Origin: a virus
DNA: 64,000 nucleotides
Strand: one strand, 5' to 3'
Virus record (IMG/VR): IMGVR_UViG_3300034954_001721
Shown here: piece by piece, positions 10,237 to 46,817 of the stretch
Position numbering within the stretch: the stretch's first letter is position 1
How the letters are laid out: every line of letters begins with the position of its first letter
The notes under the pieces: generated by a model
Seen by the model: the letters and a program-made list of their open reading frames with translations, nothing else
What the model was told of the DNA's origin: nothing
Database searches by the model: none
Translations under genes and position numbers: made by a program

Positions 10237-10284
10237 ACATAATGTAGAACGTTACGAAACGTAACACTCAAACACCCCACAAAC

Positions 10285-10390
10285 CAAGACCTCTAGGGTG
10301 TATAAAAACGTCTTTCATATCCTCTCTAAGGGTGAGAGGAAATAGTAACTCCACCATTTCCCTGATGGTCTTACTTTTTTGTTTAAAACA
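10285..10390 (+). ncRNA. Structured psbA 5' leader, PhotoRC-II-like cis-regulatory RNA
   Basis: Stems CCTCTC/GAGAGG, ACCAT/ATGGT and GTAA/TTAC in a long leader directly upstream of phage psbA; boundaries approximate. Confidence 0.55.
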
Positions 10391-46199: not shown

Positions 46200-46228
46200 T
46201 TGACTACATAGTGTATAGGAGTTATAAT
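46200..46228 (+). promoter_or_regulatory. Sigma70-type promoter
   Basis: TTGACT-17-TATAAT. Confidence 0.8.
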
Positions 46229-46237
46229 ACTCTAGTA

Positions 46238-46469
46238 CGTTCATCCCACTCTTGGGTGGGACGCAAGTAAGTCGCGGAACGGAGCGTTCATCCCATGTTA
46301 ATAGAATCACTTCTATACGCAACACTCAATTGTCAAGATTCTGATGCGATTATGCTCAGGATCGCTAGACATGAATCTTTACCACCTAAGGTAAAGATTG
46401 AGTTGGTTGAGACCGTAAGGGAAGCAACCGAACCTGAGTGTTACTGGGACGCAAACGACTGAAGGAACG
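46238..46469 (+). ncRNA. Tandem glutamine-riboswitch-like aptamers (glnA/Downstream-peptide class)
   Basis: Unit 1 46238-46281: CGTTC-a-TCCCAC/GTGGGA-cgcaagtaagtcgcg-GAACG. Unit 2 46285-46469: CGTTC-a-TCCCA...TGGGA-cgcaaacgactgaag-GAACG. Confidence 0.6.
46295..46462 (+). CDS. 55-aa ORF nested in the aptamer-2 loop (not in ORF track)
   Basis: GGAG SD at 46281; MLIESLLYATLNCQDSDAIMLRIARHESLPPKVKIELVETVREATEPECYWDAND. Confidence 0.6.
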   Translation: MLIESLLYATLNCQDSDAIMLRIARHESLPPKVKIELVETVREATEPECYWDAND

Positions 46470-46504
46470 GGGCTAAAAATCCCTAGTATTTCAGGTAACG
46501 ACAA

Positions 46505-46672
46505 ATGAACACACTAACTCTCATCAAGAAGCAAATCGAGAAGGCAGCAGCACTGCATGACGCTCAGATCACTCACACATCATATCGTGGTGTTGAGTAT
46601 GATACTCGTTGTGTAGAAAGCAAAGAGTCACACGGCACTTTCTGCTATCGTGGTCACACTTATAACAAGTGA
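46505..46672 (+). CDS. DUF4278-like small protein (not in ORF track)
   Basis: Two YRG motifs: TSYRGVEY and FCYRGHTY; downstream of the riboswitch-like element. Confidence 0.7.
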   Translation: MNTLTLIKKQIEKAAALHDAQITHTSYRGVEYDTRCVESKESHGTFCYRGHTYNK

Positions 46673-46679
46673 GGCAATT

Positions 46680-46775
46680 ATGCAAGCAATTCAAGTAGCA
46701 TCATTAGGTTCTATTTTTATCATTGCATTTCTTGGTTTACTTTACGGAGAACTCACACTTTTGCATAAGAGGTGA
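46680..46775 (+). CDS. 31-aa TM peptide (not in ORF track)
   Basis: GAGG SD; MQAIQVASLGSIFIIAFLGLLYGELTLLHKR. Confidence 0.55.
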   Translation: MQAIQVASLGSIFIIAFLGLLYGELTLLHKR

Positions 46776-46789
46776 GAAAATTAATAATC

Positions 46790-46817
46790 AAAGAGGGGTT
46801 TCGACCCCTCTTTTTTT
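46790..46817 (+). terminator. Intrinsic terminator
   Basis: AAAGAGGGGT-ttcg-ACCCCTCTTT followed by a T-run. Confidence 0.9.

Follow-up and report, generated by a model that had tools for sequence, protein, structure and literature searches.

Riboswitch aptamers are usually viewed as compact non-coding modules upstream of the genes that they control. The leader at 46238-46470 of the window (the whole 64,000-nt stretch of viral DNA analysed here, IMG/VR record IMGVR_UViG_3300034954_001721) raises the question of whether a metabolite sensor can instead be built around a translated gene, and of how its two repeated units are folded. Comparison with related phage leaders suggests that this segment is probably a double glutamine riboswitch with interlocked cores, located where the RNA of a small early operon begins, and we infer that glutamine controls this operon. 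The operon would carry, in this order, the nested gene (ORF2), a gene for an IF17-like DUF4278 peptide (ORF3), and one for a small membrane peptide. The features of the locus are as follows.

46200-46228, + strand: sigma-70-type promoter, TTGACT-17-TATAAT, 11 of 12 consensus positions matched
46238-46242, + strand: outer P1, 5' strand, CGUUC; partner 46465-46469; invariant in the 98-leader alignment (A5)
46244-46261, + strand: P2 hairpin of the outer core, compact in the window; covariation CG/UA/AU/GC
46262-46269, + strand: J2/3 of the outer core, CGCAAGUA, following A46261 (46261-69 reads ACGCAAGUA); fits the Rfam Gln-I consensus
46270-46274, + strand: P3, 5' strand, AGUCG; partner 46456-46460
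46276-46289, + strand: inner helix, GGAACG at 46276-81 (46277-81 paired) with CGUUC at 46285-89; GAG loop
46291-46295, + strand: inner P2, 5' strand, UCCCA; 46295, its final base, is also the A of the ORF2 AUG
46295-46462, + strand: ORF2, 55 aa, phrog_504; start ATG at 46295, ends W-D-A-N-D-stop
46445-46455, + strand: inner P2, 3' strand, UGGGA (46445-49), and inner J2/3, CGCAAA (46450-55); codons W-D-A-N
46456-46460, + strand: P3, 3' strand, CGACU; shared with the Asp codon and with base 1 of the stop codon
46459-46494, + strand: alternative (anti-Shine-Dalgarno) helix, 46459-64 with 46489-94
46461-46470, + strand: E-loop segment GAAG (46461-64), outer P1 3' strand GAACG (46465-69), linchpin G46470
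46505-46672, + strand: ORF3, DUF4278 / IF17-like peptide, 55 codons, two YRG motifs; dN/dS 0.18
46680-46775, + strand: fourth small ORF, after ORF3, 31 aa, hydrophobic (small membrane peptide)
46790-46813, + strand: intrinsic terminator, 10-bp stem and then a T run; closes the operon

The promoter position puts the RNA 5' end at about 46235-46237, directly at the riboswitch, and a TTGACT/TATAAT-like element is similarly placed upstream of the first CGTTCA in relatives. From the RNA start, the order is CGUUCA (46238), a short hairpin (46244-61), ACGCAAGUA, AGUCG, C, GGAACG (46276-81), GAG, a second CGUUCA (46285), and UCCC-AUG. In the window sequence, CGTTCATCCCA occurs twice (46238-46248 and 46285-46295), TGGGACGCAA lies at 46445-46454, GAAGGAACG at 46461-46469, AGTCG at 46270-46274, and CGACT at 46456-46460; each motif of the original prediction was found where it had been placed.

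Glutamine-I riboswitches (glnA RNA motif, RF01739), such as the leader of Synechocystis gifB (IF17), have a core that consists of CGUUCA, P2, ACG-N-AAGUA, P3, and GAAGGAACG (PMC6212724). The locus has the same core, with the same three-way junction and long-range closing pair. The Gln-I hallmark J2/3 ACG(G/C)AAGUA and GAAG are present by sequence at 46261-69 and 46461-64. Both the outer J2/3 and the segment 46461-46470, which carries the Rfam consensus GAAGGAACG, are invariant in alignments A3 and A5. The glutamine-I structure was described by Ren et al. (2015), as summarised in PMC6698751. The nucleotides given as ligand contacts in PMC6698751 (C1:G59, G2:C58, and the J2/3 G) are present by sequence in both cores of the window. 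A long-range linchpin pair joins the fourth base of J2/3 to the base that follows P1, and for the outer core this pair is predicted to be C46264:G46470. For the inner core the predicted linchpin is C46452:G46282, and G46281 is predicted to belong to a pair that contacts the ligand.

Rfam reported no riboswitch at the locus at gathering thresholds. With relaxed thresholds only unit 1 was matched, by Gln-II at 28.4 bits (cut-off 33) and by Gln-I at 26 bits (cut-off 35). Membership in Glutamine-II (RF01704) was not supported, as the score is under 33 bits and the 3' hairpin is poorly matched. The sole Rfam family in the window at its gathering threshold is a PhotoRC-II RNA (10262-10353, + strand, 75.5 bits), which is typical of photosynthesis-gene regions in cyanomyophages.

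Pairing of the two cores

The original prediction held that AGTCG of unit 1 and CGACT of unit 2 form a long-range helix. Both pentamers are near-invariant in the window's family and therefore carry little information on their own. L081, a compact relative without a nested ORF, scores 45 bits with Rfam Gln-I (threshold 35), and it reaches this score only if the whole tandem is read as one nested aptamer. In that alignment AGU...ACU is P3, and unit 2 is an insertion within P3. Paralogous phage leaders, retrieved with a pattern barring A at the first position, have about ten other P3 sequences, all complementary and in the same register. These include GGUCG/CGACU, GAUCG/CGAUU (L256), GAGCAUA/UAUGCUC, GAGAUAUG/CAUAUCUU, GCCAACG/CGUUGAC, GGAAGG/CCUUCC, GGACGACG/CGCCGCCC, and GGACGACU/AGCCGCCC, and in locus L207 both strands carry a coordinated insertion of 3 nt. 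The L081 alignment and the complementary changes in paralogs support the proposed pairing, and they indicate that AGUCG/CGACU is a true long-range helix, equivalent to the canonical glutamine-I P3. A minor feature of some paralogs (e.g., L198, L223, L191) is that P3 of the types GGACGACG/CGCCGCCC and GGACGG/CCGCCC has one or two A-C oppositions. These stand at fixed positions in dozens of sequences, which may point to a tertiary contact or some non-Watson-Crick feature.

The two P1 stems can be drawn in two ways. All four P1 strands of the window equal the consensus, so the window sequence alone fits nested and serial pairing alike. In relatives, the unit 1 3' strand covaries with the unit 2 5' strand, and the unit 1 5' strand with the unit 2 3' strand. 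A total of 310 distinct full leaders (224 with a nested ORF and 86 without) was collected from IMG/VR via three proteins and two DNA patterns. Below, they are sorted by the junction-proximal base of each P1 strand, in the order 5'A, 3'A, 5'B, 3'B.

C, G, C, G: 220 leaders; nested fits, serial fits (uninformative)
C, C, G, G: 63 leaders; nested fits, serial fails
U, C, G, A: 6 leaders; nested fits, serial fails
C, A, U, G: 5 leaders; nested fits, serial fails
U, G, C, G: 5 leaders; nested fits, serial fits (wobble)
A or G at 5'A: 11 leaders; nested fails, serial fails

At least some of the 11 misfit leaders, for example L322, are false upstream matches of the regular expression. Nested pairing alone fits 74 of the 310 leaders and serial pairing alone fits none, counted as sequences rather than independent events, in alignments that were partly gathered by motif and come from related phages. 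The predicted linchpin pairs C46264:G46470 and C46452:G46282 behave in the same way; six relatives have switched to G:C, in the nested combination only (nested 6, serial 0). Also, the junction-proximal pair of outer P1 changes from C-G to U-A in six relatives, which is compensatory for the long-range pairing only. Alignment A5 comprises 98 window-type leaders with the window as its first row. Its nested structure is 99.6% paired, with an inner junction pair (GC in 54, CG in 41, AU in 3) that is intact in every leader; at the corresponding P1 pairs of the serial structure, 44 and 41 of the 98 leaders are unpaired. Because the search pattern enriched the sample for variants and the phages are relatives of one another, these counts give direction and not frequency.

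The P1 and linchpin comparisons (74 against 0 and 6 against 0) indicate that the P1 strands are swapped and the cores nested. Covariation thus upheld the P2 stems and the AGTCG/CGACT helix of the original prediction and went against its serial P1 stems, the strands of which are exchanged. On this comparative evidence, the RNA is one complete outer glutamine-I core whose P3 arm accommodates an inner core that is circularly permuted. The predicted shape is a dumbbell, with a canonical three-way junction at one end, a 5-bp P3 bridge, and a second junction at the opposite end.

A gene within the inner core

ORF2 was compared across 138 distinct sequences. Its interior shows pS 0.68, pN 0.31, and dN/dS 0.225. 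The product ranges from 52 to 56 aa, which means that indels occur in threes. The frame proposed to lie in the loop of unit 2 is therefore both conserved and coding. Two Cys residues and the hydrophobic pattern are invariant, and the sequence matches phrog_504 (E 4e-24). A profile search returned 1105 clusters, every one of them unnamed, and for the product no Pfam family, no fold match at E < 0.001, and no named Atlas cluster was found. A confident AlphaFold2 model is three-helical (pLDDT 85), and the product is predicted to be a small three-helix protein. Taken together, these sequence comparisons indicate that ORF2 is a genuine gene inside a riboswitch stem-loop.

The end of ORF2 evolves differently. 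Its final codons are UGG GAC GCA AAC GAC UGA, followed by AGGAACGG. In the last five codons pS is 0.022, about 30 times below the interior, and these bases are also kept in relatives that have no gene there. The codons are synonymously frozen because the same bases form the riboswitch core. Low pS and retention in gene-less relatives both argue that this 3' stretch is constrained as RNA, so that five codons of a protein would be dictated by a binding-site sequence.

The inner P2 consists of 5 bp closing a 149-nt loop, and it is followed by a J2/3 shortened to ACGCAAA. Its positions are paired in 100, 100, 100, 99, and 94% of the 224 gene-bearing leaders, and the changes seen are UA/CG, CG/UA, CG/UG, and also CG to AU. 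Position 1 is U-A in 210 leaders and C-G in 14. The C-G variant turns an Asp codon into Gly (WDAND to WGAND), a cost which suggests that the pairing is maintained at the protein's expense. In relatives L081, L130, and L125, unit 2 is a plain hairpin with a UUCG-type tetraloop, and the distant halves in the window are thus the two sides of one stem. With this and the covariation across the ORF, the proposal that the separated halves of unit 2 pair with each other was confirmed. RNAalifold on 190 units recovered the stem that closes around ORF2 and, in addition, a single 3-bp contact of invariant core bases, which is regarded as spurious. Conserved structure inside ORF2, including an 8-bp extension in the minimum free energy (MFE) fold of the window, was absent from this output and was rejected.

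Translation of ORF2 has its own candidate ribosome-binding site. The Shine-Dalgarno sequence GGAG (46281-46284) lies 10 nt upstream of the ATG and is supplied by the GAG loop of the inner helix. It was found in 167 of the 224 ORF-bearing leaders (absent from the other 57) but in only 1 of 86 ORF-less leaders, and this tie to gene presence fits a ribosome-binding role. The positions agree with what had been proposed, with the ATG in the 5' strand of P2, the GGAG linker as Shine-Dalgarno sequence, and W-D-A-N-D-stop in the 3' strand of the aptamer.

Expression platform and proposed switching

Masking of a ribosome-binding site by an alternative helix is part of the glutamine-I leaders compared here, and the window has such a helix (46459-64 with 46489-94), which implies an ON switch. 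Its first hexamer consists of the last two P3 bases and GAAG. It flanks GGAACG yet competes with P3, is incompatible with P3, the E-loop, and the end of P1, and masks the start of the downstream ribosome-binding site. The helix is 98.6% paired in the 98 leaders; its middle pair (AU in 45, GC in 33, GU in 17) uses the second base of the ORF2 stop codon. Of 245 leaders, 243 form five or more of its six pairs, and paralogs with CCGAAG/CUUUGG are among them. Besides this helix, the RNAfold MFE structure (-87.5 kcal/mol) includes the first hairpin, the inner helix, and the stem that encloses ORF2. The forced nested aptamer lies about 6 kcal/mol higher, with ligand and tertiary energy excluded, and in these models the pattern is the one expected of an ON switch for ORF3. 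The ligand-free MFE structure also pairs GUUCAU (46239-46244) with the perfectly complementary AUGAAC at the start of ORF3 (46505-46510), a pairing that could be a second lock on this start codon.

DUF4278 is the domain of the glutamine-synthetase inactivating factor IF17, and DUF4278 genes are under glutamine riboswitches in cyanobacteria; both this association and the ON-switch logic have been published (PMC6212724). ORF3 is of the same kind. It scores 24.4 bits with PF14105 (cut-off 25.3, E 3.8e-05) and matches phrog_545 at E 3e-36. By way of this IF17-like factor, the locus may connect direct sensing of glutamine with the control that the phage exerts on nitrogen metabolism of its host. 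The 31-aa ORF is probably the fourth small gene of the operon, and similar hydrophobic peptides are found downstream of the same gene in L130 and L125.

Glutamine would stabilise both cores. With glutamine bound, the inner core would bury GGAG and the AUG, repressing the nested gene, and the outer core would take 46456-69 away from 46489-94, activating the IF17-like gene as in the cyanobacterial gifB leader. A ribosome on the nested gene would unwind inner P2, inner J2/3, and P3 and stop on the anti-Shine-Dalgarno strand, and termination at UGA (46460-62) would open the anti-Shine-Dalgarno helix. The ribosome must unwind strands of the sensor, so from the geometry translation and sensing are expected to be mutually exclusive. 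We tentatively propose a reciprocal switch, in which glutamine silences the nested gene or genes and switches on the IF17-like gene, the ribosome resets both sensors, and the cores serve as recombination anchors for swapping P2-loop cassettes. This full scheme is possible rather than probable. The arrangement would provide a natural system for competition between ribosomes and ligand-dependent RNA folding.

The main alternative to the reciprocal switch is that the riboswitch serves the IF17-like gene and the 55-codon gene merely rides in a permissive loop behind a strong early promoter, with no selected coupling. P2 loops are free to vary in length and sequence, several different genes are found in the same loops, and the invariant core sequences could act as homology arms for cassette exchange. 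Presence of the nested genes is polymorphic among close relatives (ORF1, a gene in the other P2 loop; ORF2 is missing from L130 and L081), and such gain and loss keep this explanation plausible, if somewhat unlikely. Against it, the leaders examined have the AUG within or beside the stem's 5' strand and their stop codon in or just after the core, and the inner-loop GGAG is almost exclusive to gene-bearing leaders. With these placements, occlusion of the start by the folded core would be physically unavoidable, whatever the reason for the insertion.

Two further explanations concern the RNA itself rather than its coupling to ORF2. Unit 1 may close locally and unit 2 across the ORF, as two aptamers in series each with its own P1, and AGUCG/CGACU would then be a kissing contact. 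This was the arrangement of the original prediction; the window sequence permits it equally, the sub-threshold Rfam matches come from unit 1 alone, local pairing is available first during transcription so that a serial fold could form first, and in one review tandem glutamine riboswitches are listed as independent units (PMC9481103). It is contradicted by the 74 leaders in which serial P1 is mismatched while the swapped pairs stay Watson-Crick (the reverse occurs in none) and by the linchpin covariation, and only the swapped reading gives a full J2/3 and GAAG in one core and reaches the Rfam threshold. We thus consider serial aptamers very unlikely. Least probable of all is a relic, in which insertion of the gene destroyed the riboswitch and its halves persist for coding or other reasons without glutamine sensing. 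The empty Rfam gathering search and the location of the 3' half within a coding region would agree with decay. However, the non-coding 5' half is equally conserved, synonymous sites of the 3' half are some 30-fold more constrained than the rest of the gene, the same bases are retained where the gene is absent, and the stems are maintained by compensatory changes.

Known systems, distribution and variant leaders

Glutamine riboswitches, their tandem occurrence, their association with DUF4278, and their presence in T4-like cyanophages are already known. The window departs from canonical glutamine-I in several respects. In place of a P3 hairpin it has a 5-bp helix that leads on into a second core, circularly permuted; its P1 spans about 230 nt; a translated gene lies within one of its stems; and the score is below the Rfam threshold. 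Tandem riboswitches for glycine and glutamine likewise have two cores of the same class in one leader. Tandem glutamine riboswitches are described as pseudo-cooperative doublets, and 157 glutamine doublets were counted in a review (PMC9481103). In the window, by contrast, the cores do not stand side by side with their own P1 stems; they exchange P1 strands and share P3, so that neither would fold independently. Interlocked cores of this kind differ from the side-by-side tandems described so far and predict obligatory coupling of both binding sites.

Glutamine-II (Downstream-peptide motif, RF01704) has the same binding-site sequence and likewise forms its P1 equivalent from non-neighbouring strands (PMC6698751). 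It crystallised as a domain-swapped dimer, and glutamine binding is retained when the RNA is supplied in two pieces (PMC6698751). The pocket can thus assemble from separate strands, which by analogy makes a swapped assembly plausible in the window. Two differences are that the window has no H-type pseudoknot hairpin around GGAACGG, and that its swap is intramolecular and evolutionarily conserved, whereas that in the glutamine-II crystal is a crystallisation artefact.

Functional RNA folds that close around a complete gene have a counterpart in phage biology. Group I introns of phage T4 carry homing-endonuclease genes in peripheral loops, and the RNA fold can limit access to the ribosome-binding site. 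The host RNA in the window differs in being a putative metabolite sensor rather than a ribozyme, the nested genes are not endonucleases, and start and stop codons are inside the sensor's own helices and core.

In the searchable literature, outside the scope of which Ames and Breaker (2011) falls, no description of genes in aptamer stems or of the exchanged-strand topology was found. A survey that relied on standard Rfam-type searches counted only two glutamine aptamers in phages (PMC5473149). The element is common in ocean cyanomyophages yet missed by standard Rfam scans; block 46236-46672 was matched by blastn in 423 phage records, nearly all of them Synechococcus or Prochlorococcus myoviruses. 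S-SM2, S-H38, ACG-2014j, and the distant S-SKS1 have the same anatomy, and the annotation of two of these isolates already includes the nested frame, as a hypothetical protein. A loose pattern search of cellular genome contigs gave no riboswitch among the 120 matches listed, all of which were chance matches. An apparent host copy of ORF2 on a 556-kb ENA contig (L427) was rejected, as its neighbours are the cyanomyophage genes for transaldolase, glutaredoxin, ThyX, and PhoH; a concatemeric or chimeric long-read assembly is more likely than a host copy.

Nested genes also occur in the P2 loop of unit 1. About half of the closest relatives have there a 66-aa gene, ORF1 (dN/dS 0.12), and the P2 stem of the outer core is kept in these versions. 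Which stop codon ORF1 has (UGA, UAG, or UAA) covaries with the base triplet directly before the AUG, 200 nt upstream. The promoter puts the RNA 5' end about 10 nt upstream of the ORF1 AUG, which would make ORF1 nearly leaderless. Leaders that are 88% identical differ by the presence of ORF1, and L130 and L081 are without ORF2; as such ORF-less relatives show, the gene is dispensable for the riboswitch. ORF1 was seen at L005:455-690 and about 130 other loci, and in the window this loop is compact (46250-55). The ORF1 protein has a hydrophobic N-terminus, a PYGWHMSCERF motif, and two Cys. In HHalign the Cys-to-Cys cores of ORF1 and ORF2 align with E 0.0057 at a probability of only 6.5%, too low to establish paralogy of the two gene families.

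Other leaders differ further in unit 2. L277, L312, L322, L204, and L254 have other longer or unrelated-looking small genes in its loop, and several such genes end in D-A-N, as their frames run across the same bases of the core. L254 and L263 have an ORF1-like protein placed in unit 2. At L093:711-870, a deletion has fused the end of unit 1 to the middle of ORF2, with loss of the second CGUUCA and the start codon; this resembles a naturally occurring knockout of the inner core, with the outer 3' half retained.

Some leaders have additional elements. Many relatives, among them L002:886-940, L016, L028, and L041, have an extra module between GGAACGG and the anti-Shine-Dalgarno strand that is absent in the window. 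It consists of ACGGAUCC, a 4-bp stem with a GAAA-type loop, and AGAAGGUU, and its stem covaries (CUGC/GCAG, CAUC/GAUG, CAGC/GCUG, CACC/GGUG). At L017:860-1100, L193, L261, L307, and L227, the promoter precedes a solitary ORF2-bearing unit. Downstream lie, in this order, two direct repeats of a terminator-like hairpin and a second glutamine riboswitch, in which a P3 of the type GAGCAUA/UAUGCUC encloses a non-canonical insert.
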